64,000 nucleotides of DNA from Candidatus Bathyarchaeota archaeon (lineage in GTDB: Archaea > Thermoproteota > Bathyarchaeia > 40CM-2-53-6): contig CAVTBR010000001.1 of assembly GCA_963733055.1 (NCBI GenBank), forward strand, positions 800,001 through 864,000. Direction: 5' to 3'. Position numbers and translations under genes: made by a program. Numbering within the stretch: the first letter of the stretch is position 1; each line of letters opens with the position of its first letter. The notes beneath the pieces were generated by a model. That model did not search any database, was not told where the DNA came from, and worked only from the letters and a program-made list of their open reading frames with translations. Shown one piece after another: positions 4,060 through 51,248 of the stretch.

Positions 4060-4079
4060 TGCGGGGTTGGGATTCGAAC
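4060..4079 (-). repeat. tRNA 3'-end-like fragment (T-loop plus acceptor 3' strand, Leu-like)
   Basis: Minus strand reads GTTCGAATCCCAACCCCGCA. No D or anticodon arm is present. Confidence 0.55.
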
Positions 4080-4313
4080 GCGAAAAAGGACATTAGCGCT
4101 ATTTCATGCCCCTGTTTATCGGAGTTCGAAGAGCTACACAGACCCGTTTCGTGCGCGACTAACTCAACCGTAGTCTGAATTTGTGAAATGAACTCTATCC
4201 AGAGTTTTTCACCCCTCGAAAGGGGAGAGAAAAGGTCGGTTTATGGCTGATTATTGTTATTTTCAGTCATCTCTCATGCCTATATGGACGTGTATGTGTA
4301 AACATCTTGGTTA

Positions 4314-4478
4314 ATGATGGATAAGGTCGAAGGTGACGTCTGCCCAAGATGCGGGCAAAAGGCGTTGGACGTTTACTACGAGGAGGGTTCCGACCTTCAG
4401 CTGGGAGCCCATTGCGAGGAATGTGGGCTCAAAGGCTTCTTCACGAACGGTAAACTCGTACAGCTCGCCACAATGTAA
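4314..4478 (+). CDS. CPxCG-type zinc-finger microprotein (54 aa), absent from the ORF track
   Basis: MMDKVEGDVCPRCGQKALDVYYEEGSDLQLGAHCEECGLKGFFTNGKLVQLATM*, followed by a hairpin and T-tract. Confidence 0.8.
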   Translation: MMDKVEGDVCPRCGQKALDVYYEEGSDLQLGAHCEECGLKGFFTNGKLVQLATM

Positions 4479-4500
4479 TACACCCAATTCCTCACTGAAA

Positions 4501-4524
4501 CCTCTCCTTCGGAGAGGATTTTTT
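4501..4524 (+). terminator. Hairpin plus oligo-T terminator after the Zn-finger gene
   Basis: CCTCTCC-TTC-GGAGAGG followed by ATTTTTT. Confidence 0.6.
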
Positions 4525-4595
4525 CGATGAACGAATAGTCCACAACGCTGAAAAGTACCCGAAATCTGGTAAAGCTCAGTCGGATCTGAGCGCTA

Positions 4596-5219
4596 TTGGT
4601 TGGTCCTTCCTGGTTCTTTGGTTTCGACTCCTTGATGGAGTTCATTGCGTTCGTGATTGCGATCGCTGTCGCATACCAGGCCTTGAAGGGCTACAAGCTA
4701 TCGAAGGAGAAGACTCTTCTCTACCTTAATCTGAGCTTCGTTCTAATCGGGGCTGGGTTGCTGATCGACGGGCTCTCCAGCTTAATGGTTCTTCTCGCTC
4801 GTCTTCGCGGAGGGTCTCTGTATCTTTTTGGTGTCGGCTACTCGATCAACTTCCTCGCACAACTCCTTGCATACGGACTACTAGTGTACGCGTATATTCA
4901 CCAGGCTAGGAACGTAGCCGCTTCGACAGCTGCGATGGCAGCTGTCCCGATACTGTTCTTCGAACGCAACGCCGTAACGGAACTTATCCTAGTCTTTCTC
5001 CTCGTCTACATCGCAATTCAAACCGCGATTAACTATAGCATAAACAAGAACACGAACTCAATGCTGGTCTTCGGCGCATTTGCCTCACTCTCAGTAGCCC
5101 ACGTATTCTTTCTAATTTTCACCGTAGCCCCTATCTTCTTCCCGTTCGCTCAGATCGCGCAATTGTTTGGTTTCCTTCTATTGTTGGCCATGTTGCTTAG
5201 GGTGAATCAACCCGTATGA
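4596..5219 (+). CDS. Multi-pass (about 6-7 TM) membrane protein, putative sensor-type
   Basis: Alternating hydrophobic helices. Directly upstream of a wHTH gene. Confidence 0.7.
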   Translation: MVGPSWFFGFDSLMEFIAFVIAIAVAYQALKGYKLSKEKTLLYLNLSFVLIGAGLLIDGLSSLMVLLARLRGGSLYLFGVGYSINFLAQLLAYGLLVYAYIHQARNVAASTAAMAAVPILFFERNAVTELILVFLLVYIAIQTAINYSINKNTNSMLVFGAFASLSVAHVFFLIFTVAPIFFPFAQIAQLFGFLLLLAMLLRVNQPV

Positions 5220-5528
5220 TCCCGGACTGCGCAGAGCCAGGCCGCAAAGCCCACTGCAAAGTATCGATCCCAGTTCCGTATATACGTGGACATCATGTTA
5301 GTAATTCAACGCGAGAACAATCAAGCCAAACCCACCCGAATCCTTTACGGGGCAAATCTTTCACATGACAGGCTGATCAAATATCTTGAAGAGCTCAAGG
5401 CGCTCGGTGTCATTCAGGAGACGGGAACCGACGATAAAATCTACAGCCTAACACAGAAAGGAATTGAATTCATGAACAACTTCAGAAGAGTCGAGTCTTT
5501 CGCTTCAGCGTTCGGGTTCAAGATCTAG
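5216..5528 (+). CDS. Archaeal winged-helix transcription regulator (COG3432-like), 5' end disrupted or ambiguous
   Basis: KYRSQFRIYVDIM...PTRILYGANLSHDRLIKYLEELKALGVI...YSLTQKG. The conserved N-terminal motif lies upstream of GTG 5286, and ATG 5216 is out of frame by one base. Confidence 0.75.
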
Positions 5529-6817
5529 ACAGTGCGTTTCGTCAAGTAAATGTATCCCGCCGCTACAACGACTACTACGAGACTCGGGACAATCGCGAGA
5601 CCGATGAATGGAAGAACGATTAGCGAAATGGCCAAGGACGCTAATGGAAGGAAGAAGTTCATTCCACCCCGCTTCGGTCGACCAAGCAACTTCACTCCCG
5701 CAGCAGACCCCACCACGTAAAGAAGAATGAACGACCCGCTCGGGACCAAGATTGCCGTCGCCAAATCCATGTGCGAAAAATAGTATACGACAAGTACCAT
5801 AACAAATGTGCCGACTAGTGCAATCAGAATCCTGTCCGGGACTCCAGTCTTGGGATTAATGTGAGCTAACTCTCGCGGGAGTCCACCATCCCTTGCCACC
5901 GCAAACAACAGCCTTGACACGCCGGTCGTGTAAGCATTCACGGTCCCGAAAATTATGAAGACCGCAGCTAACGCCGTTCCCTCCCCAGCATACCTGCCCA
6001 GCACGTTTGACAAAATCGCAGCGAACGGCGCCACGCTCCCACCCGCCTCATAAGCGCGAGTTCCAATCGTGACAAAGGCGACGGCTATCTGGAGAAAACT
6101 GACCAACAATACGCTTAGTACAATGCTGCGATGAAAATCCTTCTTCGGATTCTCAAACTCCTCAGCCACGTTCGAAGTGTTCTCATACCCTATGTACGAC
6201 CAGAAAATCAACGCCGCGGCCGTTCCCACCGCCAGAGGACCAGCAGAAAAAAATGGTTCAAAGTTTTGCGCCTTGACTAAGAAGGCAGACGACGCGATTG
6301 TCGCGACGAGTAACGCAACTATGGAGACTACAATTGCTAATTGAATCCTAGTGCTGATCACAATTCCCCTGTAATTTATCGCGAAAGCTGAAGCAACAAT
6401 TCCGAACGCTATCAGGTAAGTCTCAGCACGGCTGAGGGGGAACGCGTAGCCGATGTAGGACGCCGCGATGAGGGTGACGGCAGGGGCGCCTGTAATTACG
6501 CAGAAAGCAAACAGCCACCCAACCACCGCGCCCACTCGAAATCCGAAACCTTCCCTTGTGAATGCATAGATTCCTCCAGACTCAGGACGGCGCGCCGATA
6601 GGGACGCAAAGGTGTAGGCGAAGGGATAACTGGCAACTGAGAGAAGCACCCAGGCCAGCAGGGAGGCAGGGCCCGCGATTTTTGCCGTGAGCCCCGGGAG
6701 AACTAGTATGCCGGACCCTAGGACAGAAGTTGCGTACAGCGCCACAGCGTGCCTTAATCGAATCGCCTTTCGTAGGTGGGCGTTCTGACTTGCATTCTGT
6801 GGTGTGCTCTCAGTCAA
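5525..6817 (-). CDS. APC-family amino acid permease (YjeH-like)
   Basis: LGSGILVLPG, GGIYAF, FWSYIGYE and AEEFENPKKD; about 12 TM helices. Confidence 0.88.
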   Translation of the reverse strand: MTESTPQNASQNAHLRKAIRLRHAVALYATSVLGSGILVLPGLTAKIAGPASLLAWVLLSVASYPFAYTFASLSARRPESGGIYAFTREGFGFRVGAVVGWLFAFCVITGAPAVTLIAASYIGYAFPLSRAETYLIAFGIVASAFAINYRGIVISTRIQLAIVVSIVALLVATIASSAFLVKAQNFEPFFSAGPLAVGTAAALIFWSYIGYENTSNVAEEFENPKKDFHRSIVLSVLLVSFLQIAVAFVTIGTRAYEAGGSVAPFAAILSNVLGRYAGEGTALAAVFIIFGTVNAYTTGVSRLLFAVARDGGLPRELAHINPKTGVPDRILIALVGTFVMVLVVYYFSHMDLATAILVPSGSFILLYVVGSAAGVKLLGRPKRGGMNFFLPLASLAISLIVLPFIGLAIVPSLVVVVVAAGYIYLTKRTV

Positions 6818-6943
6818 TCGCTGACAAACCCCAGACTTTCCGATTAGCCAAGTAGCCCTCCCTTATTACGTCGAAGGCGTGGCACCATGGGTCTTCATCG
6901 ACACAGCCCTGCCATTTTCGTAGCGACAGGACCACGCTTTGCT

Positions 6944-6969
6944 GAATGTATCACCCGGGTGATACATTC
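6944..6969. repeat. Perfect 26-bp palindrome
   Basis: GAATGTATCACCC|GGGTGATACATTC. Confidence 0.9.
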
Positions 6970-6986
6970 GCTCGTCAGCGCACGAA

Positions 6987-7026
6987 AGGGTGGGCCACAC
7001 CCCCTCCAAAAGGGTGAGCCACACCC
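6987..7026. repeat. Left copy of the palindromic direct repeat flanking RelBE (two 15-bp hairpin units, 24-bp period)
   Basis: GGGTGGGCCACACCC-cctccaaaa-GGGTGAGCCACACCC; matches 7955-7994. Confidence 0.85.
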
Positions 7027-7151
7027 ATTTCGGAAGGATTAGCGACGACGCTGTGGGCAAGTAGCGGAGCTGCCCAACCTGTTAAGTTGAAAGCGGCACC
7101 GCCTCTCCGGAAAAAGGTGCCGTTTTGCGCTCCTTTCAAGCTCAGAACGCA

Positions 7152-7173
7152 TGAGAGGGTGGAATTTGAACCC
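7152..7173 (-). repeat. Degenerate tRNA 3'-end-like fragment
   Basis: Minus strand GGGTTCAAATTCCACCCTCTCA, 35 bp downstream of the relE stop. Confidence 0.4.
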
Positions 7174-7208
7174 TAATGATACACCCAGTTTTCGGATGCC
7201 ATTTACCT

Positions 7209-7469
7209 CTATGGACCGTAGACTCGGCTTCGGTGGTCTATCTTTTCAACGAGCACTAGCCTGTCGCTGGTGAAAACTTCATACAGTATCCTATAATCGC
7301 CGACCCTTACTCTACAGACGCCCTCTCTGCCCTGAAGTTTCACTAGGCCTCTTGGAAAGGGGTCTTCGCCGAGTTCCTCTAACTTTGAGATGATTCTTCT
7401 CTTCATCGCGGATCCAAGTGAGTCTAGCTCACGGTCTGCCCTCTTTGAGAGCCTAACTTCATAAATCAA
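7209..7469 (-). CDS. relE: RelE/ParE family toxin
   Basis: YEVRLSKRADREL, KLQG, RVRVGDYRILY and IDHRSRVY. Confidence 0.9.
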   Translation of the reverse strand: MIYEVRLSKRADRELDSLGSAMKRRIISKLEELGEDPFPRGLVKLQGREGVCRVRVGDYRILYEVFTSDRLVLVEKIDHRSRVYGP

Positions 7470-7654
7470 CGGGAGTTTTTAGCTCGAGCGAGGGGTACGG
7501 TCTTTCCTTCCTTCAGGTCTTGGTGTGCTTCCTCGAGTGCTAGAAGGTCGTCTCTGGAGGCGATTGCGTCGTACGCCTTTTCGAGAGCGCTGATTCGCCT
7601 CTTCATTTCGTGCATCTCCTCCTTCAATTCCCCATAGCTTGCTTTCATAGTCAA
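7466..7654 (-). CDS. Cognate antitoxin (archaeal RelB-like)
   Basis: Small helical protein with LEEAHQDLKEGKTVPL; overlaps the relE start. Confidence 0.75.
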   Translation of the reverse strand: MTMKASYGELKEEMHEMKRRISALEKAYDAIASRDDLLALEEAHQDLKEGKTVPLARAKNSR

Positions 7655-7931
7655 GGCATTCGTTCCTTGTCTCCTTTAACTCCTCCTTCGAATCTCCTGC
7701 ACAAAGAAGGTCGAAAATCCCGAAAGTCGCCGAGCTCCTTGGCCTCAAATGCTTCGGTAATGCCAACTCGCACGTAGTCTCAGCCTGCTGATCTAGCCTA
7801 GATCGAATATTTTGACAAGTCGTGTTGCTCGCCTTGTTTCTGCATCCATACTCCGAAGTTCATGATTTTCCCAAGGAATGAGGATTCGACTTCTTAGGAC
7901 CAAAACCAGTAGGGTTGAACTGAAAGCGCCG

Positions 7932-7994
7932 GGGTGGACCCCACCTCCCGTCGCAGGGTGGGCCACACCCCCTTTCAAAGGATGAGCCACATCC
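7932..7994. repeat. Right copy of the palindromic direct repeat (three units, 24-bp period)
   Basis: GGGTGGACCCCACCT / GGGTGGGCCACACCC / GGATGAGCCACATCC at 7932, 7956 and 7980. Confidence 0.85.
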
Positions 7995-8065
7995 CCAACG
8001 GCTGAAAGCAAACCGTGGTACTCAGAGTTACCTAAGCAAAAGGTACAATTCGGAGCACTGACGAT

Positions 8066-11217: not shown

Positions 11218-12474
11218 TTGGTCTACGAGTTCCGCCTTCCAGACATAGGTGAAGGCGTAGCTGAAGGCGAAGTTGTAAAATGGCTGGTAAAGGAAGGAGA
11301 CTCGGTAAAGGAGAACCAGCCCCTCGTCGAAATCATGACCGATAAGGTCAACGTAGAAATCCCCTCCCCCAAGCAAGGAATAATCCAGAAACTCATGGCC
11401 AAAGAGGGCGAAGTCGTCAAGGTAGGACAAGCTCTCCTCGCAATAGAAGAAAAAGGTGGACAACCAAGCGCTCCGGGATCAGAAAAAGCACCCGCTCCCA
11501 CGAAAGCAGCTCCCACTATATCTGCGAAAACACCCACGGTTTCTAGGCCACAAGAAATCCAAACAACAACTCCCCCTCAAGTTTCACGAAAACCCTCAGA
11601 AGTCTTGGCGACGCCTGCGACTCGAAAGCTTGCGAGAGATCTTGGTGTAGACCTATCTGTTGTTCAGGGAAGTGGCCGCGGCGGCCGAATTACAGACGAA
11701 GATGTGCAACGCTTCAAACAGCTAGGGGGAGCGGTCGCCGCTATAGCTGTGACCACTTCTGGGCCGCGCGGCGTTGAGGAGCGAGTTCCGTTACGAGGAA
11801 TTCGACGAAAAGTTGCGGAACACATGCTCAAATCCAAGAATGCGGCGGCACAAGTAACCCATGTGGACGAAGTTGACATGACCGAAGTCGTCCATCTGAG
11901 AGAGAGGGCGAAAGCTTCAGCTGAGAAGCGTGGAGTAAAGTTGACTTACCTGCCTTTCGTCATGAAGGCCCTAATTCCGGCACTGAAGCAGTACCCGTAC
12001 CTTAACTCCAGCTTGGATGACGAGAAACAGGAGATAGTGCTCAAGAAATACTACAACATCGGTATAGCGACCGACACTGAGCAGGGGTTAATGGTTCCTG
12101 TGGTCAAGGACGCCGACCACAGATCGATAACGCAACTCGCCACAGAAATCGCGACCCTTAGCGAGAAAGCCCACACAGGACAGCTGGCTTTAAATGAAGT
12201 TCAGGGAAGCACCTTTACAATAACCAACGTAGGCGGAATCGGCGGAGTGTTCGCTACTCCAATAATCAATTACCCAGAAGTCGCCATACTCGGACTCCAT
12301 AAAATCACCAAACGCCCTATCGTCAAGGACAACCAAATCACAATCCGTGAGATGACCTACCTCTCCCTATCCTTCGACCATAGAGTACTAGACGGCGCAA
12401 TGGCAGCCCGGTTCGTAAACGCAATCAAACAATACCTAGAGGATCCGAAACTCCTTCTGCTCGAAACCGACTAA
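11218..12474 (+). CDS. pdhC: Dihydrolipoamide acyltransferase E2
   Basis: Single lipoyl domain (TDKV), E3-binding domain and catalytic FDHRVLDG. Confidence 0.93.
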   Translation: MVYEFRLPDIGEGVAEGEVVKWLVKEGDSVKENQPLVEIMTDKVNVEIPSPKQGIIQKLMAKEGEVVKVGQALLAIEEKGGQPSAPGSEKAPAPTKAAPTISAKTPTVSRPQEIQTTTPPQVSRKPSEVLATPATRKLARDLGVDLSVVQGSGRGGRITDEDVQRFKQLGGAVAAIAVTTSGPRGVEERVPLRGIRRKVAEHMLKSKNAAAQVTHVDEVDMTEVVHLRERAKASAEKRGVKLTYLPFVMKALIPALKQYPYLNSSLDDEKQEIVLKKYYNIGIATDTEQGLMVPVVKDADHRSITQLATEIATLSEKAHTGQLALNEVQGSTFTITNVGGIGGVFATPIINYPEVAILGLHKITKRPIVKDNQITIREMTYLSLSFDHRVLDGAMAARFVNAIKQYLEDPKLLLLETD

Positions 12475-12537
12475 ACGACAGTTGTACGTGCGAGTTTCGT
12501 CTTCTCATCACGATTATATAGTGCTCATCTCGGAGCG

Positions 12538-12798
12538 GTGGACAGCGAAGTGAGCGTCTTGTCAAGGAGACCTGAGGGGATGGGTTGGAGAGTGGCAGTG
12601 TCTATCGTCGCCTTCTTCGGCTCAATAATAGCTGTTATACTGTGGCTATTCTTCTACGCAGGGAGCTTCAACGTGTATCAGAACCTCGCTGTCGTTGTTG
12701 TGATCTTCCTAGCCTTCATCGCAGTGATGGGCGCAACATGGGCCCCCTGGGGCATGAAGCAAGCAGCCTGGTGGACCGACAGAACCAACACTCCGTAA
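12538..12798 (+). CDS. Small 2-TM membrane protein
   Basis: GWRVAVSIV...WLFFYA...YQNLAV...GATWAPWG; two hydrophobic helices. Confidence 0.65.
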   Translation: MDSEVSVLSRRPEGMGWRVAVSIVAFFGSIIAVILWLFFYAGSFNVYQNLAVVVVIFLAFIAVMGATWAPWGMKQAAWWTDRTNTP

Positions 12799-12912
12799 AG
12801 ACAGAAACGACTGTCCAACCCAGATAACCACTAGCTCGTTCCAGCGAAGGCAGTAGCATACTTGTTGCTTGCAATGGTTGCTTAATCGAGAACACGATGA
12901 GGAACGAACGCC

Positions 12913-12937
12913 TCGCGTGTGGGGGTCTAGTGGTGCG
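12913..12937 (-). repeat. tRNA-CCA-end plus flank repeat (truncated copy)
   Basis: Plus strand TCGCGTGTGGGGGTCTAGTGGTGCG; nearly identical to 14582-14610. Confidence 0.75.
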
Positions 12938-13017
12938 CACACACACAAAACTCCACCTACAATTACCGTGGCCCAACAGGCCAATAGATTTGTTAGTCGC
13001 ATAGATTCGACGAAAAC

Positions 13018-13443
13018 ATGGAAGATATCATCAAGAGATTTAACGAGTGTTCATGGACATATGCAACCGCAACTCTGCACAGAATACATTTTTCGCCGCC
13101 TTCAGAAACATTTACGAGTCACCAATCGTGCCTGGTTATGGAGAGAGTGGATGGAGGGAAAGAAATGGTGCTCCCCCGCTATATTGGACGCGACGTCAAT
13201 CTCAAAGAAGTTCGCGCCGTTGCAGATCTGGCAAGGTTCGAGAATTGGGATGACATATTGCATTTCGTGTTACCGAGACTCCAAGACGAAACTCCACGTC
13301 ATGAAGCTGCCTCTAAAGAAAGCATGAGGCGCATCGTATCAAGAAAGTTAGCCAAACTGTCACCTTGCCTAGCATTGATCGGATTAGTCAGCGTCGTTTT
13401 AGCAGCTGTTGCGTTTAGACGCCGAAAGTCTAGTCGACAATAG
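13018..13443 (+). CDS. Hypothetical tail-anchored membrane protein
   Basis: 141 aa with a C-terminal TM helix followed by RRRK. Confidence 0.55.
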   Translation: MEDIIKRFNECSWTYATATLHRIHFSPPSETFTSHQSCLVMERVDGGKEMVLPRYIGRDVNLKEVRAVADLARFENWDDILHFVLPRLQDETPRHEAASKESMRRIVSRKLAKLSPCLALIGLVSVVLAAVAFRRRKSSRQ

Positions 13444-13683
13444 TCTGCTTTTTCGATTTTGATACGACTGCTTGCCTAACTCCTTCTAGAGGAGACGAGA
13501 GAAGATCTCGATGAACGAAACCGTGGAATTACCAGCAATACAGCGTCAATGAAATTCAAGAGCAAACTAAGCAATGAAATCTTATCATTCACGTATCGCG
13601 TCACACAGTCGTGTATCGTTCTGCTAGGTATATTTGCGGGTGGGTAATACGCAGAATCTGTTTTCTGGGGGGGGGGGTGGTAT

Positions 13684-13711
13684 TAGTGGTGCGAGCACCG
13701 CAATTTGAACC
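13684..13711 (-). repeat. tRNA 3'-end-like repeat (Gly-like) with CCA
   Basis: Minus strand GG-TTCAAAT-TGCGG-TGCTCGC-A-CCA-CTA, with canonical 7+5+7+1+3 spacing. Confidence 0.75.
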
Positions 13712-13787
13712 ATCGTTTTTCACGCATAAAGGTCAAATCGAAAGCCTTAGGTTGTTGAATACAGGATTCCCCATAGAGCAAGAAGAG

Positions 13788-14522
13788 TTGTCCAGTCCTC
13801 TAGCTGTGCCAATCATAGAGCAGCTCGTCCCAGGCGGATTTGGTTATGGCATGAACATGCTAATCGAATTTGATCCTAAATCCATATGGTACGAAACATC
13901 GCTAACGATCGCGGCCCATGCATTGCGTAGCGGCATAAGGACCGACTACCATACCTTTCAGCATTACCCGACCGAGGTTCTGGAAAGCCTAACCAAGTTT
14001 GGGGTAGACATTGAGAAATTGCAGAAAGAGGGTACACTGAGCATAATTGACAGCTACACAATCCAGCTTGGATTGGGAGCACCCAAGACCCCCACGGGCC
14101 GAGTCCAATTCCCTACTCAATCAGTAAAACTGTCGGATTGGAGTATTTCGCTCTCACAAGAAATGAAAACTGGAGCCCCTGAGGCTGAGAAGAGACGGTT
14201 GCATATTGATGATAATACTTCCGTTCTGCTTCAATATAACGATGAGAAACAATTCATAGATGTGTGGCGAACCCGCGCCGTTCCCATGGCTAGAGGTCGC
14301 CAACTTGCATTGTTGCATTCCTTGGTAACTGGAGTTTACTCGGAAGCATTCTCTCGCCAGTTCGAATCCATCGCGGACGGAATCATTGAACTAAAGAGCG
14401 AAGATAAGGGCGGCGAAATCGAACATTCCATTAGAGTTAGGGCGGTTCGTGGCAAGAATTACGATTCGCGATGGCATAAGCTCCAACGACTGGATAACGG
14501 CGAAGTCACATTAGCCAAATAG
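13788..14522 (+). CDS. RAD55/KaiC-like RecA-fold protein with degenerate Walker A
   Basis: LVPGG..G.NMLIEFDPKSIWYE, IIDSY, FESIADGIIELK and RVRAVRG. Start placed at TTG 13788 because the track's longer 5' extension crosses a repeat. Confidence 0.8.
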   Translation: MSSPLAVPIIEQLVPGGFGYGMNMLIEFDPKSIWYETSLTIAAHALRSGIRTDYHTFQHYPTEVLESLTKFGVDIEKLQKEGTLSIIDSYTIQLGLGAPKTPTGRVQFPTQSVKLSDWSISLSQEMKTGAPEAEKRRLHIDDNTSVLLQYNDEKQFIDVWRTRAVPMARGRQLALLHSLVTGVYSEAFSRQFESIADGIIELKSEDKGGEIEHSIRVRAVRGKNYDSRWHKLQRLDNGEVTLAK

Positions 14523-14537
14523 GTTTCTAGAAGTAAC

Positions 14538-14629
14538 CTAGATGGTGCGGTGCGGCAAGCAAATTCGATCTGGACTGGTTTTCGCGTGTGTGTGTGGGTC
14601 TAGTGGTGCGGGCGACTGAATTTGAACTC
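14538..14629 (-). repeat. Two tandem tRNA 3'-end-like repeats
   Basis: Minus strand GAG-TTCAAAT-TCAGT-CGCCCGC-A-CCA-CTAGACCCACACACACACGCG (14582-14629), plus a more degenerate GATCGAATTTGCTTGCCGCACC..GCACCATCTAG (14538-14570). Confidence 0.7.
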
Positions 14630-14816
14630 GTCTTCTTAAGACTGCAATTAAACTAAGTGGACCAGAGTAACGTAGCTTTGTCATCCGTCGATATTTCTGC
14701 GTGCAATCGAGTAGGTTGAAGGTAGTCCATAGTACGGGCGATTCTATCTCCTATCTTCAGGAACATTAATTTTAATCCATGATTTCGCTTCATAAATCTG
14801 AATTTAGGGGTTAAGA

Positions 14817-16208
14817 ATGGCACAGAAGTCCGAAGCGGTTGTGCTTGGGAGTGGGCCAGGAGGCTACGTTGCGGCCATTAGACTTGGGCAGCTCGGAAAG
14901 GAAACGGTTCTCATAGAGAGAGAGAAACTAGGCGGGGTATGCCTAAACATCGGATGCATACCCTCGAAGGCACTGATCCGCATCGCGAAGTTAAAACAGC
15001 GGGTAGAGGCTGCGAAACAGATTGGCTTAGAGGCAACTGGAGTCCATGTAGATTTTCCTAAAGTGCAAGCGTGGAAACAGGGGGTAGTAGATCGACTAGT
15101 ATCCGGTATCGATTACCTACTCAAAGGAAACAATGTCAAGCTCGTGAAAGGAACCGGGAAATTCATTGACGCTCACCAGCTCGAAATCAAGAGCGAGAGT
15201 GGGACAGAAGTCATTGAAGCGAAGGACATAATCATAGCAACGGGTTCGCGTTACTTCGATCTTCCCGCTTTCAAGTTCAACGGAACCAGCATAATCAGCT
15301 CAACCGAAGCGCTTTCGCTTCAAGAAGTCCCCAAGAAGTTGGCCATAATCGGAGGGGGCGTGTCTGGGTTGGAGATGGGAACTATGTACGCCCAACTTGG
15401 GACGAAGGTAACCGTAATTGAAATGTTAGACCAACTCCTCCCCGGAACCGACATCGACCTAGTCAGGATCGTCGAAAGGTCACTTCGAAAACTTGGCATC
15501 GAATACCACGTCAAATCCAAGGCCAAGGAGTTCCACGACGGGAAGATCTACGCAACCCTAGAGGACGGAAAGGAAGGCGCATTTGACGCTGACAAGGTCT
15601 TGGTCACCGTGGGCAGACGCCCAAACAGCGACGATATCGGTTTGGAGAAGGTTGGGGTCCAGCTTGATTCGCACGGGTTCATTCAAGTCAACAAGAAAAT
15701 GCAAACCAACGTACCGGGGGTCTACGCGATAGGGGACGTGGTAGGTCCTCCCATGCTCGCGCACAAAGCCTCCAAAGAAGGAATAGTGGCCGCGGAGGTT
15801 ATTGCGGGAATGAGCAGTGAAGCTGACTTTCACGCAATCCCAGGAGTCATATTCACCGATCCCGAAATCGCAACCGTCGGCCTCACCGAGTCACAAGCGA
15901 AAGAAAAAGGGTACGATCCAATCGTTGGAAAGTTTCCATTCACAGCCCTGGGACGCGCACTCCTAGCTGGCGAAACTGAAGGATTCGCCAAGATAGTGGC
16001 GGACAAGAGCTCTGATCTGGTTCTCGGCGTCCACATAGTTGGCTCGGAAGCCTCAGACCTAATCAGCGAAGCAGCTCTCGCTATAGAAATGGGAGCAACA
16101 CTAGAAGACATTGGACTCACAGTTCACCCCCACCCCACTTTACCGGAAGGCGTGATGGAGGCGGCGGAAGCAGCAAAAGGAAAAGCGATTCACATCCTAC
16201 AAAAATGA
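14817..16208 (+). CDS. lpdA: Dihydrolipoamide dehydrogenase E3
   Basis: GSGPGGY, GGVCLNIGCIPSK and HPHPTLPE. Confidence 0.96.
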   Translation: MAQKSEAVVLGSGPGGYVAAIRLGQLGKETVLIEREKLGGVCLNIGCIPSKALIRIAKLKQRVEAAKQIGLEATGVHVDFPKVQAWKQGVVDRLVSGIDYLLKGNNVKLVKGTGKFIDAHQLEIKSESGTEVIEAKDIIIATGSRYFDLPAFKFNGTSIISSTEALSLQEVPKKLAIIGGGVSGLEMGTMYAQLGTKVTVIEMLDQLLPGTDIDLVRIVERSLRKLGIEYHVKSKAKEFHDGKIYATLEDGKEGAFDADKVLVTVGRRPNSDDIGLEKVGVQLDSHGFIQVNKKMQTNVPGVYAIGDVVGPPMLAHKASKEGIVAAEVIAGMSSEADFHAIPGVIFTDPEIATVGLTESQAKEKGYDPIVGKFPFTALGRALLAGETEGFAKIVADKSSDLVLGVHIVGSEASDLISEAALAIEMGATLEDIGLTVHPHPTLPEGVMEAAEAAKGKAIHILQK

Positions 16209-16869: not shown

Positions 16870-16888
16870 CTCTCCTATTGAATTACAA

Positions 16889-17911: not shown

Positions 17912-17934
17912 CGGCCGGGGGATTCGAACCCACC
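17912..17934 (-). repeat. tRNA T-arm-like fragment upstream of vapBC
   Basis: Minus strand GGTGGG-TTCGAAT-CCCCC-GGCCG. Confidence 0.5.
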
Positions 17935-43505: not shown

Positions 43506-44855
43506 ATGGTAACCAAAGTTCAGCACCATAAGATCGTTGCTACTCCGCCTGGACCTAAGGCGAGGGAATTGCTTCAGAAAGATGCGAACGTCTTGTCGCA
43601 ATCGGTTATTCGCTGGTATCCGCTCGTTGCAGAGTCTGGTTCGGGATGCGTCGTTAAGGATGTGGACGGTAACGAGTTCATAGATTTCAATTCGGGGCTA
43701 GTGGTTTTGGCCGTAGGCCATTCACACCCACGTGTCGTCAAAGCGATCAAAGATCAAGCTGAGAAACTAATTCACTATTCTTGGACCGATTTCTACTATA
43801 AGCCAATCGTCGACCTAGGGGAACAACTCACTAAGATAACGCCCGGCTCATTTCCGAAGAAAGTGTTCTTCTGTAATAGCGGCTCGGAGGCAAACGAGGC
43901 CGCGATGAAAATGGCGCGGTGGCACACTCGCAAACCGCTATTCCTAGCGTACACCGGCGCATTTCATGGAAGAAGTTTCGGAACGATGGCCCTCACCGCC
44001 AGCAAACCCGTTCAGAGAAGACACTTCTTCCCTCTCGTTCCGGAAGTAACCCATGTTCCTTATCCTTACTGCTACCGCTGCCCATTCGGGCTGAAGTATC
44101 CGGAGTGCGACATGTGGTGCGTCGACTTCATCGAAGAAGAGGTCCTCAAGAAATTTCATCCCCCTGAAGACACGGCTGCAATGTTCGTGGAACCAATCCA
44201 GGGAGAGGGAGGGTATGTGGTTCCTCCCGACGATTACTTCCAGCGCTTGAAGAAAATTCTTGACAAGTATGACATTCTGCTGGCTGACGACGAGATACAA
44301 TCCGGGATGGGACGGACCGGTAGATGGTTTGCTTTAGAGCACTGGGGAGTAACTCCTGACATTCTGACCACCGCCAAGGCTCTAGCATCCGGACTCCCAA
44401 TCGGCGCCGCCGTAGCTAGACAGGAACTCATGGATTGGGAAGGGGGTTCTCATGCCAACACCTTTGGAGGTAATCCAGTAGCATGCGCCGCCGCATTACA
44501 GGTAATTGGCATCATAAAGGAAGAGAAGCTGATGGAGAACGCGATCCATCAAGGGTCGTACCTAATGAAGCGACTGAAAGAAATGCAACAGCAATACCCC
44601 ATAATGGGCGACGTGCGCGGCAAAGGTTTGATGATTGGAGTGGAATTCGTCAAAGACCCCGAAACCAAGGAACCCGCAGCTGAGGAAGTGGAGGACATAA
44701 CGAACAAGTGCTTCAAACGAGGATTGGCAATCATCACCGCGGGAAAATCCTCGATGCGCTTCGCACCACCACTCATCATAACCCGCGACATCATCGACGA
44801 AGGACTGGAAATCTTCGAAGGCGCCGTAAAGGAAGTAGCAGCTCAGCTTCGATAG
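43506..44855 (+). CDS. Class III PLP aminotransferase (4-aminobutyrate/acetylornithine type)
   Basis: NSGSEANE, FHGRS, EPIQGEGG, DEIQSGMGRTG and AKAL. Confidence 0.9.
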   Translation: MVTKVQHHKIVATPPGPKARELLQKDANVLSQSVIRWYPLVAESGSGCVVKDVDGNEFIDFNSGLVVLAVGHSHPRVVKAIKDQAEKLIHYSWTDFYYKPIVDLGEQLTKITPGSFPKKVFFCNSGSEANEAAMKMARWHTRKPLFLAYTGAFHGRSFGTMALTASKPVQRRHFFPLVPEVTHVPYPYCYRCPFGLKYPECDMWCVDFIEEEVLKKFHPPEDTAAMFVEPIQGEGGYVVPPDDYFQRLKKILDKYDILLADDEIQSGMGRTGRWFALEHWGVTPDILTTAKALASGLPIGAAVARQELMDWEGGSHANTFGGNPVACAAALQVIGIIKEEKLMENAIHQGSYLMKRLKEMQQQYPIMGDVRGKGLMIGVEFVKDPETKEPAAEEVEDITNKCFKRGLAIITAGKSSMRFAPPLIITRDIIDEGLEIFEGAVKEVAAQLR

Positions 44856-45844: not shown

Positions 45845-45858
45845 GCTAGGTCTATCCC

Positions 45859-46236: not shown

Positions 46237-46259
46237 GCTCACCGGTCGAGCTCTTCTTC

Positions 46260-46931
46260 TTAGAAGTCGGTTGTTGAGGTGCCAAAGGTTCCGAATCCTA
46301 CGTTGAATCCTGCCTGTTGAGCTTTGAACTGCGCGTGGTCCATGGCAATTGCGTATGCGAGAATAACGTACGGGTCGATTTCTTGGCTTGAGATTTCGAC
46401 GCCGTAGGAGTCGCGAATGCTCACCCATTTCTTGTGGATCTGAGCTATCGTGCTTCCCGATGGGTTTTGAATGGAAAACTCGTGTGCGGTTATGTTCCCC
46501 TTGATTCTCGCAATCTCCTTCCCTGTCGAGTCCTCGAGCCACCATTCCGAGCCCAGTAGCTTCAGGACCTTCTTTTTGACAACTGCTACGAGTCCTTGCT
46601 GATCGTAGATTTCGAAGGTAGGTCTGACCGTTAGGACTTTCCCCCTCATTTCACCTAACCTGCCGCCGTCCGGCGTTTCGAAATAGAATTGCGGCCCCCA
46701 GCTGACCAGTTTCCTCTTCACGTATGCGAGCAGGTTACCGTTTCTGTCTTTGATTCCAAACGTATCGCGTAGAGCTGCAATCTTCTGCTCGATGATGTAC
46801 TCTCTGCCCGAAAAAGTAGAAGTGGGATTAGCGGTTGGAGTTTGTGGGAGGGCACCTTCCAGTTTGTACCCACAGCTAGTACAGAATTTGGTATCTCCTG
46901 TTATCTCATTACCGCAAGACGGACACTTCAC
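46260..46931 (-). CDS. Zinc-ribbon plus LURP-one/scramblase-like protein
   Basis: CPSCG..FCTSCG, IEQKI...DTFGIKD and KKWVSIRDSYGVEI. Confidence 0.82.
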   Translation of the reverse strand: MKCPSCGNEITGDTKFCTSCGYKLEGALPQTPTANPTSTFSGREYIIEQKIAALRDTFGIKDRNGNLLAYVKRKLVSWGPQFYFETPDGGRLGEMRGKVLTVRPTFEIYDQQGLVAVVKKKVLKLLGSEWWLEDSTGKEIARIKGNITAHEFSIQNPSGSTIAQIHKKWVSIRDSYGVEISSQEIDPYVILAYAIAMDHAQFKAQQAGFNVGFGTFGTSTTDF

Positions 46932-47093
46932 AACAAAACAACTCAGTGAGCAACACGCGTAAAGACAGTAATATTTGTAACCAATTCAGGGCATCAGGCA
47001 CCAGGGCTCGTCGTAACACAGTACATTCGAAATGGTCGAGACGGAAAATTAATCATGATCGACGATATGCGAGCCATGGACGGCGTTTAGTGA

Positions 47094-48035
47094 ATGGAGT
47101 TCAATATCCGACCTTTGAGTGAAGAAGATTTGCAGAAAGCGGATCATATCATGCGTTTAGCTTTTGGAACATTCGTTGGGGTTCCTGATCCCGCGAGTTT
47201 CGGTGAAGGGATGGATCACGTAAAGACTCGTTGGCGGGCTGATCCGAAGGCGGCTTTCGGGGCTGAAAGAGATGGTGAGCTTGTAGGGTCTAACTTTGCC
47301 ACGAGATGGGGGAGCTTCGGTTTCTTCGGACCATTAACTGTACGCCCAGATTTATGGGACAAAGGAATTGCTAAACTTCTCCTCGAACCCACAATGGACC
47401 TTTTCAAAAAGTGGGGTGTCAGCCATGTGGGCCTCTTCACGTTCGCTCAGAGCCCGAAACACATAGGCTTGTACCAGAAATTCGGATTTTGGCCAAGATT
47501 TCTGACACCACTGATATCGAAGACCGCGCAAAGTGGAGGCGTTCCCGGGAAGTGGTCCAAGTTTTCCGATGTACCTGACAATGAAGTGAGACGAATCTTG
47601 GCGAAGTGTCGAAGCCTGACCAATTCAGTCTACAAAGGCTTGGATTTAGAGAAAGAAATCATGTCTGTCCGGCAGCAAAAACTTGGCGACACAATCCTGT
47701 TGTGGGAAGGCGAAACAGTTGTTGGCGTCGCCGCCTGTCACTGTGGTGCAGGGACTGAGGCTGGACGGGATACATGCTATGTCAAGTTCGGAGCCGTCCG
47801 CAGCGGAGATGGTGCGGAGGGTTTCTTTGATCGACTGCTGAGCGCGTGCGAGGAGCTAGCTACTATGAGAGGAATGACACATGTGTCGGCCGGCGTAAAC
47901 TCCGGATGTCATAATGCCTATCGAAGAATGATTGCAAGAGGTTTCCGCGCTGAGTTTCAGGGGGTCTTGATGCTCAAACCAAATGAGCCGGCGCTTGATC
48001 TGCCTGATCGTTACGTTCTATGTGACCTACGCTAG
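47094..48035 (+). CDS. GNAT family acetyltransferase (tandem GNAT)
   Basis: GPLTVRPDLWDKGIAKLL and LYQKFGF. Confidence 0.82.
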   Translation: MEFNIRPLSEEDLQKADHIMRLAFGTFVGVPDPASFGEGMDHVKTRWRADPKAAFGAERDGELVGSNFATRWGSFGFFGPLTVRPDLWDKGIAKLLLEPTMDLFKKWGVSHVGLFTFAQSPKHIGLYQKFGFWPRFLTPLISKTAQSGGVPGKWSKFSDVPDNEVRRILAKCRSLTNSVYKGLDLEKEIMSVRQQKLGDTILLWEGETVVGVAACHCGAGTEAGRDTCYVKFGAVRSGDGAEGFFDRLLSACEELATMRGMTHVSAGVNSGCHNAYRRMIARGFRAEFQGVLMLKPNEPALDLPDRYVLCDLR

Positions 48036-48062
48036 GATCAGATCCATCCATCGTGGCTACCC

Positions 48063-48950
48063 TTGAGTAGTAATCGCGAAGGAACAATTCTAGTTTTTGT
48101 GTCAGCCGTCGCGTTTGGCTTCCAGCCCATCTTCGCTAAGCTTGCCTACATTCAAGGAGTTGGTGTTGACGAGCTTCTCTTCATCAGATTCCTTCTTGCC
48201 TTCCTGATCATGGGAACGCTTCTCGCCGCTACCCATAGGCTGGTTATTCCCAAGAGAATGGATCTCTTGGCGTTGATTGTACTCGGCGCTCTGGTCTACT
48301 TCTTGCAATCCACCTTTTACTTCAGTGCTCTCCTCTTTTCGCCAGTTGCGATCGTCGCGCTACTTCTTTACACTTACCCAGTCTTCGTTACATTGGGCGC
48401 ATACATGCTAGGTTGGGAGCGGGTTCCGCGCCGACTCGCGGGCGTTTTCATAATAGCATTGATTGGACTGATCCTGGTTGCAAACCCGTTCGGAACAGCG
48501 ATCGGCCTTGGCGTGTTTCTCGCATTTGCTTCTTCGATAATATACACGATCTACATTCTAAGCAGCTCGAGGGTTCTTAGAAGGGTCAAGGGAGACGTAG
48601 CCGCTTTCTACGTGATGGGAGCCGCGTCAGCAACCTTTGGCTTAACCGGAGCATTGACCGGTTCGATTCATTTGAACTGGAGCGTTGCCGGATGGTTCTG
48701 GGTGCTGACCATTACACTCGTTTGCACGGTTCTCGCAGCAACTACATTCTTCATCGGCATTTCGAAAATAGGACCCTCAAGGGCTGCATTGATTAGCCTC
48801 ATCGAACCGGTCACCTCAGTACTTCTTTCGTTAGCCCTCTTCGGAAACAAACTCACCATACCACAGTGGTTCGGCGGCATCTTGATACTCGTATCAACGG
48901 CCATCACGACCGTCTACGGCAAACCTCTCGAACGCGAGCTCCATCCATAA
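48063..48950 (+). CDS. EamA/DMT family transporter
   Basis: About 10 TM helices, LLYTYP and LIEPV. Confidence 0.88.
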   Translation: MSSNREGTILVFVSAVAFGFQPIFAKLAYIQGVGVDELLFIRFLLAFLIMGTLLAATHRLVIPKRMDLLALIVLGALVYFLQSTFYFSALLFSPVAIVALLLYTYPVFVTLGAYMLGWERVPRRLAGVFIIALIGLILVANPFGTAIGLGVFLAFASSIIYTIYILSSSRVLRRVKGDVAAFYVMGAASATFGLTGALTGSIHLNWSVAGWFWVLTITLVCTVLAATTFFIGISKIGPSRAALISLIEPVTSVLLSLALFGNKLTIPQWFGGILILVSTAITTVYGKPLERELHP

Positions 48951-48975
48951 GCCGATAAGCGTATTCGGGGTCGTT

Positions 48976-49382
48976 TCACTCCAGCCAAACGGTCTTGCAA
49001 GGTCGCTTGATTTGGTAATGAGAGAAGTTCTTTTCTTTCTGGGCCCCGCGCCAGTGCCATGAGAAGGCAGGAATGCAGACGAAGTCCCCCCTCTTCAAAT
49101 GCTAGACCTCGCCGAAGGTCACTTGCGCTTTCCCATCTTCCCCCAGCCTGACTTGGGTATGCACGGCCAAGAGACCTTCACCCTCATGCGTCATCAATAC
49201 CTAGTCGGGTCGGAGTCATGATAGTGCACCTTAGTCCGGGTGCCGTCCTCGAAACTCACTAGGAAAACTTCAACGTCCTTGGTAATTGAGTCGTTGATTA
49301 CGGCTCGAATCTGGACTTTCCAACGAAATAAGTCTCAGGTCCTGGGGTCGGGGGAAGTTTCGTCAATGTTGAATTTCGGCAT
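48976..49382 (-). pseudogene. Decayed cupin gene
   Basis: Fragments GPETYFVG, VSFEDGTRTKVHYHDSD, EGEG, GDFVCIPAFSWHWRGA and TVWLE*, broken by several frameshifts and an in-frame TAG. Confidence 0.7.
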
Positions 49383-49579
49383 AGTGTTTACCTCTACCTG
49401 CACCCTAATCAGTGATCGGCTGGTCTTCAACGTTCGTGAGCAGTCAATAAGCTAGGCAGTTCCTTGCAGATGTGCAATACCGCCAACCCACACTCTGAAG
49501 TTGAGGTGACGTAGAATTCTCGCCTCGCGGGTGGAAATTTTCGACTCACGTTTAACCCATCGGGGAGTGGTGAATTGTT

Positions 49580-49938
49580 GTGAGCGAATTGAAGTTCAAA
49601 CGTAAGTGGTTCAAGCAAAGTCATGCGACTGGTCACGGAACCGCTTGGAAGCTAGGTTATGTCCTTGCATTCGTTGGCGGCGTTGTGATTATCATACTTA
49701 GTTTGGCGAAGCTTGCGAATTTTCCTCTGTACGTGCCGATCAATGTACCTCTCGCGGGTATTTCGGAATAGGCGTGATCAGCTTGATACTTGGCGTAGTG
49801 GCTGTGTTTGGATCTAAGCGCGTAAATGAGTTGGTCTGGGGAATCGTTTTGATGATCGTCGGCTTCGTCGTCGGCGGAGTCGGTGGGCTACTCGCTTTAG
49901 TCGGGGGCCTGGTTGGATTGCTTTCGAGGTATGTCTAA
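49580..49938 (+). CDS. Small membrane protein, one base missing near 49762
   Basis: AWKLGYVLAFVGG... continues in another frame as FGIGVISLILGVVAVFGSK...GGVGGLLALVGGLVGLLSRYV*. Confidence 0.65.
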
Positions 49939-50375
49939 TGGACAACGCGCCCGGATCCATCAATCCCTCCGCGGCGTCCGTTAAACCTCTCCAGAACACC
50001 TTTCTCTTCGATCTCGAAGGCCACTCCATTCTCGCGGCAAAAGTCGCGAGTAAAGTTGCAAAGGAGATTTCAGGGCAGGATATGAAATCCTCAGGGGGCA
50101 TAATTTCGAAGCTCAAGGCGAAACTCGGTCTCACCAAAGAAACTGAACGATGGTTCGTCGTTACAAGCGTCGACAATCCTCTTCTCGCGGAACCTGACAA
50201 GTTCGGACTCCAGGTTGCAGAGAGACTCACGAAAGCAACAGGCACTGCGGTCTCAAAAACGGACCTATCTATCTCTGCCAGCGCACCCGTTGCCGGAATC
50301 AAAGAGAAGGACGAGCCATCAGCTACGGTCAGAGACGACCGAGAAGGGCTTGTCACGCAACCAATCACTGCCTAA
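49938..50375 (+). CDS. Hypothetical protein
   Basis: 145-aa ORF coupled to the upstream stop (TAATG). Confidence 0.55.
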   Translation: MDNAPGSINPSAASVKPLQNTFLFDLEGHSILAAKVASKVAKEISGQDMKSSGGIISKLKAKLGLTKETERWFVVTSVDNPLLAEPDKFGLQVAERLTKATGTAVSKTDLSISASAPVAGIKEKDEPSATVRDDREGLVTQPITA

Positions 50376-50387
50376 ACGAGCCTCGAC

Positions 50388-51095
50388 TTAGGACGATCTC
50401 TCAAGACTGACTTCCAAGCTCTCGCGCAGTCTCAATAGGTGCCATCGCGCATCGTATACGACCTTACGCATGTTCCTAATTCTCATGGTATTCCGAAGTT
50501 CTTCCCCCGATTCGTCGAGTTTGAAATCGATGGTACCATCGGCGCCGGCTTCAAGGGTCTTGTAGACAGATTCAGGATGAACGCCCCTTACAATGCCAAG
50601 AATCTGGGTTGAGTCTCTTACGACAGAGGAGGGGAAACTCCTGGTTAGTAGAAATTCGGTCCAAGCTTTGTCGTCATTGAACCTGGCTAGGGTTGAAACG
50701 TTGTCGCCGATCCTCAGCAGGTCAGGGTTAGGTGTTTCGTGCATGGCTTCTTTCGCGAAATGTATGCTGAGGTCGTGGATCCGCAGTGAATCAATCGCGA
50801 ATTTCTCCCTCGACTTCTGACCCAAAGTAGCTGTATACCAATCGTAAATCATCAACTTGCCTGCGCTTTCCAACTCCTCGACATTGACTGAAAGCTGTCC
50901 AAGTGTAGCCCGAATGTCATTTGGTGTTTGACCGCCGGCATTGTAGATTAGAGCGCCGCCCTGCTTCAGCCAGCCCGCAGCGATGCTGAGGGAAGCGTTG
51001 TACCACTGCGATGATGGGTCGAACTCAACTAGGATGTTTGATCCTGTCGGAATGGGTGCTTTAGTCAAGTCTCCGATTAACTGAATTTGTGGCAT
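50388..51095 (-). CDS. RAD55/KaiC-like RecA-fold protein with degenerate Walker A (paralogue of 13788-14522)
   Basis: IPTGSNILVEFDPSSQWYN, IYDWY, ADGTIDFK and RIRNMR. Confidence 0.8.
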   Translation of the reverse strand: MPQIQLIGDLTKAPIPTGSNILVEFDPSSQWYNASLSIAAGWLKQGGALIYNAGGQTPNDIRATLGQLSVNVEELESAGKLMIYDWYTATLGQKSREKFAIDSLRIHDLSIHFAKEAMHETPNPDLLRIGDNVSTLARFNDDKAWTEFLLTRSFPSSVVRDSTQILGIVRGVHPESVYKTLEAGADGTIDFKLDESGEELRNTMRIRNMRKVVYDARWHLLRLRESLEVSLERSS

Positions 51096-51248
51096 GAGAA
51101 TACAGAACCATTTTGAGGTGACTTAGTTGCTGTTACGGCTTTGTTTCCTGTGTATGGGTTTAATGGCACGCACGAGGTAAGTCTACTCTAGTTGGTCGTA
51201 ATATAATGGGAATGCTAGGAGAGCATCTCGGAGATGCGGTTCTCCCAG

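Follow-up and report, generated by a model that had tools for sequence, protein, structure and literature searches.

The 64,000-nucleotide stretch of DNA analyzed here (the window) corresponds to positions 800001-864000 of contig C1 of a Candidatus Bathyarchaeota genome (label G000; 2.88 Mb in the three contigs C1, C2, and C3; 50.5% G+C; completeness 96%); fragment coordinates given without a contig label follow the window numbering. The window contains a 2-oxoacid dehydrogenase operon in which the genes for LipA, E1a, E1b, and E2 are separated from those for E3 and LipB by 2.34 kb of additional DNA, and this DNA carries short minus-strand sequences that resemble the T-loop and the acceptor 3' end of a tRNA. 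A preliminary description of the window had cited eight minus-strand stretches of this kind and had interpreted them as tRNA-derived repeats marking the borders of accessory genes. All eight are present in the sequence. Those at 12916-12949, 13675-13715, 14538-14570, and 14588-14634 belong to one tRNA-like repeat family, while the stretches starting at 4060, 7152, and 17912 do not and are treated separately below. Very probably, the members of this family are junctions of mobile DNA that was inserted at tRNA-end-like sites, and hence mark the borders of cassettes.

The repeat unit consists of a tRNA T-arm-like segment or the sequence GTGTGTG, followed by 14 nucleotides (nt) starting with CGCA-CCA and then by CACACAC. 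To the left of CGCACCA, class A units carry the T-loop-like sequence GTTCAAAT exactly 9 nt upstream, the spacing found in tRNAs, and class B units carry GTGTGTG; in a third form, GTGTGTG and the 14-mer are present and unrelated sequence takes the place of the right CA run. Labels are used for relatives where they have to be told apart: G013 is the closest species, G015 and G016 are other genomes, and L-numbers denote contigs or loci of relatives. The features of the window that concern the repeat family are the following.

12475-14816, no strand assigned: whole insertion of 2.34 kb between E2 (11218-12474) and E3 (14817-16208)
12538-12798, plus strand: cassette gene for a small membrane protein of 86 amino acids (aa), which comes next after E2 in G013 and metagenome contig L105 as well
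12916-12949, minus strand: class B junction with GT tip (12946-12938), CGCACCA-CTAGACC (12937-12924), and CA-type tip (12923-12917)
13018-13443, plus strand: orf141, a cassette gene without a family match in the domain search
13611-14522, plus strand: cassette gene for a KaiC-like paralogue (Pfam PF06745)
13675-13715, minus strand: class A-like unit with GTTCAAAT (13710-13703), 9 nt, CGCACCA-CTAATAC (13693-13680), and a C-run replacing the CA tip
14538-14570, minus strand: decayed second tRNA-end-like copy (GATCGAAT..GCACCGCACCATCTAG) without CA tip, beside the 14588 copy
14586-14634, minus strand: class A unit with GTTCAAAT (14627-14620), 9 nt, CGCA-CCA-CTAGACC (14610-14597), and CA tip (14596-14586)
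14635-14712, minus strand: putative remainder of the landing pad (the roughly 80 nt upstream of this class A unit), from the pairwise alignment with G013
51142-51174, minus strand: weak degenerate copy that precedes a second KaiC-like paralogue (minus strand, 50388-51095) by 47 nt

Anatomy and tRNA Origin of the Repeat

The best-conserved columns of the family are CGCACCA and CCACACAC(A), with a variable stretch between them; the flank CTAG/A..CACAC, which had been noticed beforehand as a shared non-tRNA part of the fragments, is the most conserved part of the family. When site classes were counted over the whole genome with up to two mismatches per arm and with the reversed genome as the control, we found 17 sites with both arms (class B; control 0) and seven with a tRNA-like left side plus the right arm (class A; control 0), next to 32 sites with the left arm only (control 11) and two with the right arm only (control 2). 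Hence, nearly every CA tip follows a pad, i.e., the tRNA-like segment, or the end of another element.

Two of the seven class A sites are real tRNA genes. The multi-intron gene for tRNA-Arg(TCT) at C1:343231-343392 ends with ..CGGCCGCACCA and is followed by CCAGACA-CATACAC. The gene for tRNA-Gly(TCC) on C3 possesses an unusual T-loop (GTCCGAAT); downstream of the gene stand ACACATC-CACACAC, a run of ACGACG, and a pseudo-3'-end that repeats this GTCCGAAT. Seven variable nucleotides (N7) and CA(C/T)ACAC therefore stand directly after the CCA of both genes, which carry the right half of the repeat unit as their trailer. A parent tRNA, which the preliminary description had recommended to look for, is thus at hand in a parent-like form, namely tRNA-Arg(TCT) with the same flank, and the suspected origin of the repeats from tRNA 3' ends is further borne out by the T-loop at tRNA spacing and by CGCACCA, which represents an acceptor end plus CCA. 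CCA is encoded by essentially all real tRNA 3' ends of this genome, as judged by a perfect T-arm scan. The spacing within the 14586-14634 unit equals that of the real tRNA-Arg(TCT) 3' end.

None of the class A copies was recognized as a tRNA by the Rfam covariance model (whole window, 12400-14900, and one other sub-region; E-values up to 10), ARAGORN found no tRNA in the window, as had been stated before, and the T-stems of the repeats are unpaired by eye. N7 varies widely among loci. Among neighboring same-strand pairs, seven share 12-14 of the 14 positions of the 14-mer and two share 9-10 (counted by eye and without a shuffle control); the 14-mers at 14610-14597 and 12937-12924, for instance, are identical (14/14), and that of tRNA-Arg agrees with the next copy at 13 of 14 positions. 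As an observation apart, the tRNA genes of this genome are heavily interrupted: ARAGORN reported seven without introns and 33 with introns allowed, and the Rfam tRNA model reported 20.

Copies, Arrays, and Cassettes Across the Genome

The genome-wide profile scan suggested in the preliminary description was carried out with an nhmmer profile built from the genome-wide copies; counted at E-values up to 0.01, it yielded 41 copies, situated on C1 and C2. The profile spans include 12916-12949 (E = 2e-8) and 14588-14616 (E = 8e-4 for 14588-14634). Weaker spans lie at 13677-13704 (E = 0.08-0.43 for 13675-13715) and at 51148-51173, where the weak copy listed earlier near position 51150 proved to be a degenerate family member (51142-51174; E = 0.026-0.2). 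Comparison with 100 shuffles each of the window separated the two sequence hallmarks from one another. The core CGCACCA-N7-CACAC (up to one mismatch) occurs four times against 0.19 expected, a number that none of the shuffles reached, and lies above chance, whereas the T-loop octamer GTTCRAAT occurs eight times against 6.08 +/- 2.36 expected, was matched by 25 of the 100 shuffles, and is at chance level. Of the four core matches, that at 44103 is probably due to chance.

Judged by a crude set of open reading frames (ORFs) covering 87% of the genome, 37 of the 41 copies are intergenic, with 19 in tandem, 11 in convergent, and seven in divergent spacers. In the tandem spacers they lie 2-356 nt from the stop codon and always at least 38 nt from the next start, and their orientation relative to the genes is random (nine on the same strand, ten on the opposite one). 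At C2:518-526 kb, eight consecutive single-gene units are separated from each other by one copy each. When this array was compared with the genus by BLASTN, every unit was retrieved on its own (89-96% identity), in one orientation or the other and at loci lying scattered; the G013 counterparts fall into two islands rich in the motif, 200 kb distant from each other. None of the matches extended across a repeat, and the homologous units in the relatives are again flanked by copies. The genes are shuffled between species cassette by cassette. The E2 gene is 88.6% identical between the source genome and G013, and since the cassettes are not markedly better conserved than this core gene, the comparison documents rearrangement and not recent transfer.

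The cargo comprises KaiC-like paralogues, small enzymes, and hypothetical proteins, with glyoxalase, cupin, DoxX, and DinB proteins among the accessory functions; PADLOC gave no match to the cassette proteins. We considered KaiC-like genes as an obligatory partner of the repeat and rejected this idea: in the source genome 22 of 44 copies have such a gene within 400 bp, yet in relatives only three of 29 loci do so within 1.2 kb. KaiC-like genes are therefore taken to be the most frequent cargo. All of the 23 KaiC-like paralogues with the best scores (about 240 aa; those at 13611-14522 and 50388-51095 plus 21 on C1 and C2) lack the Walker A motif GxxGxGK[ST], which is present in 12 of 25 more distant members of the KaiC-like family. 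Judged by this motif, the cassette-borne subfamily is probably not an active ATPase. The ORF at 13611-14522 is probably over-extended at its 5' end; Rfam hits inside it at 14159-14245 to the thiamine pyrophosphate riboswitch (20.9 bits) and to sR23 (13.7 bits) are far below the gathering scores and were taken as chance. Within the C2 array, a stretch of about 184 nt in L001:7122-7440 (C2:522192-522510) is 92-94% identical in at least eight genomes of the genus, with multiple copies in some; this identity is far above the level of core genes, and the stretch holds a 38-codon ORF for a very basic peptide.

An Insertion Between E2 and E3

In L072, L087, L086, L130, L128, L077, and G016, the gap between E2 and E3 measures 3-20 bp, and the E2 genes of the closest metagenome relatives are 89-90% identical to that of the window. 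Since E2 and E3 are adjacent in the relatives, the 2.34 kb found here are an insertion. Together with the cassette shuffling that stops at the repeats, this upholds the earlier view that the repeats border gene-sized accessory DNA; this support does not extend to relBE, vapBC, and DUF5655, which had been named as neighbors of the fragments.

Read along the minus strand, the insertion contains, in this order, a pad (14712-14611), the 14-mer CGCACCACTAGACC, and a CA tip; next come the KaiC-like gene, another pad-like unit (CGCACCACTAATAC), and orf141, and a GT tip, CGCACCACTAGACC again, a CA-type tip, and the small membrane protein gene complete the series. This stack order explains the co-orientation of the repeats that had been noticed in the preliminary description. 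From the sequence, the 14 nt at 14610-14597 may be read as a target-site duplication, the CA-repeat at 14596-14586 as the tip of the next element, and the segment 14635-14712 as the rest of a pseudo-tRNA landing pad that Rfam does not recognize as a tRNA. A segment comprising orf141 (12928-13511) has a second copy at C1:1569317-1569876; within the repeat, the two cease to be similar exactly after CGCACCACTA.

In G013, this pad recurs some 200 bp upstream of E3. Good alignment is confined to the pad plus roughly 80 nt past it, the surrounding spacer being unalignable, and the cargo at this junction is different and larger, with two ORFs for HNH nucleases. The E2-E3 junction is a general insertion hot spot. 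As a further observation at this site, L030, L031, and L032 carry an amino-acid permease gene between E2 and E3, and one of them also CobS and its neighbors, in each case without the repeat.

Assembled contigs of four DNA sequencing runs displayed peaks of depth, together with loose ends, precisely at 12917-12950 and 14588-14627, as expected of a multi-copy repeat. The sides of the contig joints are only 20-35 nt long and lie on repeat sequence, so that these contigs furnished no evidence for excision and, hence, none for the circular cassettes that the preliminary description had envisaged in the reads. In run X2, a contig over 13719-14592 has eight differences, and the memb86 and orf141 pieces differ by about 9-10%; this contrast is suggestive and possibly reflects different organisms.

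Distribution Among Relatives and Viruses

The pattern GTGCGCACCA-N6-9-CACACAC is present in 22 of the 23 genomes of the genus and in 40 of the 105 genomes of the order, while the reversed control pattern gave no match in any of the 105. Its occurrence is patchy: within the family, one genus has it in 21 of 22 genomes, another in 10 of 10, and a third in none of 22, and it recurs in a few genera of other families. Exact repeat matches come mostly from Candidatus Bathyarchaeia/Bathyarchaeota metagenome-assembled genomes of soil and peat origin, with three small contigs binned elsewhere. In viral contigs, the class B pattern had no matches; three viral records contain a unit, in each case near one record end only (at 874, 882, and 4659 nt).

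Casposases in Relatives and a Proposed Mechanism

Casposons, mobile elements that depend on a Cas1-family transposase (casposase), are known as few large self-replicating transposons and are the presumed ancestors of the CRISPR adaptation machinery. Matches to Cas1 (PF01867) were found in 12 of the 22 other genomes of the genus, with up to ten in one genome and often as several copies and fragments, as well as in four of the ten genomes of the second motif-bearing genus; the motif-less sister genus had them in none of 22. At six of about nine loci compared by coordinates, the repeat motif lies within 8 kb of the casposase gene. The Cas1 protein of G015 (L212:9180-10391, 404 aa) matches the structure of the Methanosarcina mazei casposase (6OPM) over its full length with an E-value of 8e-77, versus 2e-22 or weaker for CRISPR Cas1 proteins. 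Its gene shares a 9-kb element with genes for an HNH nuclease and a TIR-domain protein, and this element is delimited by inverted repeats of 55 nt, of which the outer 21-23 nt are the repeat motif. Among the neighbors of G015 casposases are also an AIPR abortive-infection protein (L210:9660-12641) and, at L212:8404-11157, the TIR-domain protein and the HNH nuclease.

These data can be accommodated in a scheme in which a casposase would insert DNA right after a tRNA 3' end or a tRNA-end-like pad. The landing pad would consist of the T-arm-like GTTCAAAT plus 9 nt, the insertion would duplicate a 14-bp target beginning with CGCA (here CGCA-CCA-N7), and the inserted units would start with CACACAC and end with GTGTGTG. 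A pad followed by the 14-mer and CACACAC (class A) would then be the near end of a stack of units, GTGTGTG followed by the 14-mer and CACACAC (class B) the junction of two stacked units, and GTGTGTG followed by the 14-mer and unrelated DNA the far end of the stack. The stacked units of this genome would be short, Cas1-less, and mostly single-gene. We think it likely, with some reserve, that the family represents scars left at junctions of family-2-type casposons and of derivatives lacking Cas1; that a casposase made these particular junctions is what we infer, while the repeat anatomy, its spread in the genus, the E2-E3 insertion, the cassette shuffling, and the casposase genes of relatives are shown. 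Because the 14-nt CGCA segment is as in M. mazei, and because casposases and the motif co-occur in the genus, a casposase is a more likely agent than a tyrosine integrase. The integration scars assumed in the preliminary description thus stand as junctions of mobile DNA, while the archaeal tyrosine integrase held responsible for them gives way to a Cas1 casposase as the more likely enzyme.

Weighing the Alternatives

A number of findings weigh against casposase-made junctions. Cas1 (PF01867) has no match in the source genome itself (completeness 96%); since no casposase gene was found there, the copies would be relics, or mobile only via an enzyme supplied from elsewhere. A pad is absent from the empty E2-E3 junction of the relatives, as is a repeat from the left border of the insertion, so that the pad itself must have come by another route. 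In the C2 array, successive copies are of mixed orientation (-,+,+,+,+,+,-,-), and the inverted repeats of the single-gene units comprise CA/GT tips of 7-9 nt, beyond which the similarity is short and imperfect by eye. The L212 element is the single casposase-bearing element found with the motif at its ends. Its 14-mers are inverted and not direct, its CA tips point outward, which is the polarity opposite to that of the stacking model, a direct duplication outside the element was not seen, and none of its 11 ORFs encodes a family-B polymerase (a genome-wide search was not made). Inverted-repeat scans at the L211 and L213 casposase loci and at L210 gave no element ends. If an integrase had duplicated a longer piece of the tRNA, the odd T-loop found twice at tRNA-Gly would be expected as well. 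In a viral record of 51.7 kb (IMG/VR), a class A unit close to the record end has, at a distance of 260 bp, the gene for a tyrosine integrase of 363 aa, which ends in a zinc ribbon (L153:2656-4764), and a KaiC-like ORF lies on the other side of that unit.

The latter two findings lead to the main rival, in which the repeats are attachment (att) or dif-like sites of a tyrosine recombinase that shuffles cassettes site-specifically, with a 28-bp core made of imperfect 11-bp arms (GTGTGTGCGCA / GACCCACACAC) and a 6-bp centre, CCAYTA. The consensus fits this 11-6-11 layout with eight of 11 arm positions symmetric, the hybrid site classes resemble attP, attL, and attR, and the end of the orf141 duplication after CGCACCACTA falls exactly on the proposed border of centre and arm. 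The genome encodes six Xer-like paralogues, with classical tRNA 3'-end duplications beside some of them, and all three viral records carry the unit near one record end. However, none of these recombinases lies near any repeat cluster in the source genome, the matches to PF00589 are all outside the window (as the preliminary description had it, the window contains no integrase), and none of the six reaches the cut-off for XerA or for integron integrases (39-63 bits for TIGR02249 versus a cut-off of 265); nor did a single chromosomal dif site emerge. Moreover, the proposed 6-bp centres differ between neighboring sites of an array, and the CGCA start and the length of 14 nt fit casposon biology more specifically (PMC6977970, in the part used here). 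The L153-type integrase was rejected as the trans-acting enzyme: it has no homologue in the source genome, its phyletic fit is poor (it occurs in 22 of the 105 order genomes, some in genera without motif matches), and no motif lies within 1.5 kb of the 12 homologues examined. Taken together, we consider a tyrosine recombinase unlikely, but the foremost competitor. Serine recombinase genes were not found in the source genome.

Alternatively, the copies might be intergenic elements akin to repetitive extragenic palindromic (REP) sequences or miniature inverted-repeat transposable elements, serving as hairpins or protein-binding sites for transcript 3' ends or regulation, with the shuffling a side effect of homologous recombination between copies. 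Their intergenic position near stop codons without a fixed orientation to the genes would suit such a role, as would the 7-9 bp GT/CA stem that class B copies can form and the composite copies of relatives, in which 21-bp inverted arms lie about 55 nt apart; REP-like elements have been reported for archaea in general (PMC12306157, in the part consulted). Yet the genome lacks Y1/RAYT transposases (PF01797, no match) and TnpB (PF07282, no match), the stem variants do not co-vary (by eye, uncounted), and a consistent T-run is missing. This reading also leaves the asymmetry of the classes and the tRNA trailers unexplained, and the patchy distribution across the order fits a mobile element better than a host signal. 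We therefore regard it as quite improbable.

Comparison With Known Systems and Implications

Casposons, integrons including archaeal ones, and dif modules are already known. In M. mazei, family 2 casposons reside at the 3' end of a tRNA-Leu gene and are flanked by a 14-bp duplication, which includes the final 4 bp of the tRNA and whose 5'-CGCA is conserved; for integration, some 30 bp of tRNA sequence upstream are needed in addition to this duplication, and the elements encode family-B polymerase (PolB) and HNH proteins (PMC6977970). The repeats described here share with the family 2 casposons of M. mazei and Aciduliprofundum boonei the position at the very 3' end of a tRNA gene and, by analogy, the presumed 14-bp duplication with 5'-CGCA and the upstream tRNA-like segment; the relatives' element has the HNH nuclease as well as a casposase that matches the M. 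mazei structure. The 14-mer contains seven rather than four tRNA bases here because the tRNA genes encode CCA. In contrast, the units of this genome are mostly 0.3-1.6 kb in size, single-gene, and devoid of Cas1 and polymerase, and they form stacked arrays at pseudo-tRNA pads that are dispersed and occur even within an operon, while in the casposase-bearing L212 element, which shows no PolB, the motif is part of the inverted repeats and its polarity is opposite. Given the absence of Cas1 from the source genome, the units of the window are at most non-autonomous derivatives or scars.

Like integron cassettes, including those of archaea (PMC9668308, as far as its consulted sections describe them), the units form arrays of short, mostly single-gene modules, each followed by a conserved, imperfectly palindromic site, with small accessory cargo, many arrays without a nearby recombinase, and a patchy taxonomic distribution. 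Unlike integrons, they come without IntI, their sites are tRNA-end-derived, 28-34 bp long, and free of the GTTRRRY/RYYYAAC (R''/R') boxes by eye, their orientation is mixed, and the sites are dispersed instead of residing on one platform with attI and Pc; for the integron-like system contemplated in the preliminary description, no canonical trait of integrons came to light. The dif modules of Acinetobacter (PMC6449649, PMC13141974, as their consulted parts present them) resemble the cassettes in that 28-bp sites of 11-6-11 layout bound accessory genes, the module is without a recombinase, and shuffling takes place between replicons; they differ in that they belong to bacterial plasmids, their sites resemble the host dif site, and their orientation alternates, which is not so here, where no link to Xer emerged either. 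With the attL/attR sites of archaeal tyrosine-integrase elements, of which this genome offers examples at C1:1423419/1428508 and C3:527889/546747, the repeats share duplicated tRNA 3' ends. Those sites, however, are near-exact copies of 28 nt or more with intact T-arms and an adjacent integrase, while the family retains no more of the tRNA end than CGCACCA and the T-loop heptamer, carries CA/GT tips in addition, and is not accompanied by a nearby integrase.

In the literature searched, there was no description of casposons or of such repeats in Bathyarchaeia, nor of stacked Cas1-less single-gene units at pseudo-tRNA pads, and the consulted part of a study of Bathyarchaeia viruses (PMC10848311) does not mention such sites. 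We put forward, as a speculation that we hold rather doubtful, a casposase-driven, integron-like mode of gene capture in Bathyarchaeia of this and a few other genera, in which Cas1-less mini-casposons with one accessory gene each would be inserted, stacked, and exchanged at chromosome-wide, even intra-operon, pseudo-tRNA pads by casposases supplied in trans. If this were true, a relative of the CRISPR integrase would act as a general cassette recombinase, and casposon integration chemistry would also have yielded dozens of tiny single-gene units per genome, with portable tRNA-like landing pads in a widespread archaeal class of soil and sediment. Casposases would then be a major shaper of accessory gene content in these organisms, in a role comparable to that of bacterial integrons, and the tRNA-like debris at the borders of variable genes in these genomes would find an explanation. 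The elements of the window are relics without the enzyme, which limits what the locus itself offers. In practical terms, the motif is a marker with which cassette borders can be annotated.

Isolated tRNA-End-Like Fragments in the Window

Three of the seven better-preserved stretches cited in the preliminary description are not members of the family.

4060-4079, minus strand: isolated T-loop/acceptor-like fragment; an old tRNA-end scar or chance, both being possible
7152-7173, minus strand: isolated T-loop-like fragment beside a ParE/RelE toxin gene
17912-17934, minus strand: isolated T-arm-like fragment beside vapBC

They rest mainly on the octamer, which by itself occurs at chance frequency, and this raises the question of whether the resemblance of intergenic sequence to tRNA ends is fortuitous altogether. 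For the family, such an explanation is extremely improbable and is refuted by the excess of the core pattern in the window, the 41 copies in the genome, and the empty reversed-pattern control; the three fragments may be chance. Aligned with real tRNA 3' ends, they score 15-17; in a sample of 3000 intergenic windows of 56 nt, a null in which real tRNAs and repeats are included, 0.3-0.4% attain such scores, and by this suggestive comparison they may be old tRNA-end fragments. We also considered whether the vapBC border informs on the 17912 fragment and dismissed this, as the alignment with L073 diverges just past the promoter of the neighboring gene and is silent on the fragment. The 17912-17934 sequence resembles the 3' end of a tRNA that serves elsewhere in the genome as an integrase attachment site. 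Classical integrated elements are found at C1:1423419-1428532 and C3:527889-546771, where near-exact duplicated tRNA 3' ends with intact T-arms are adjoined by tyrosine integrase genes (C1:1427652-1428236; C3:530362-531324 and 545835-546695).

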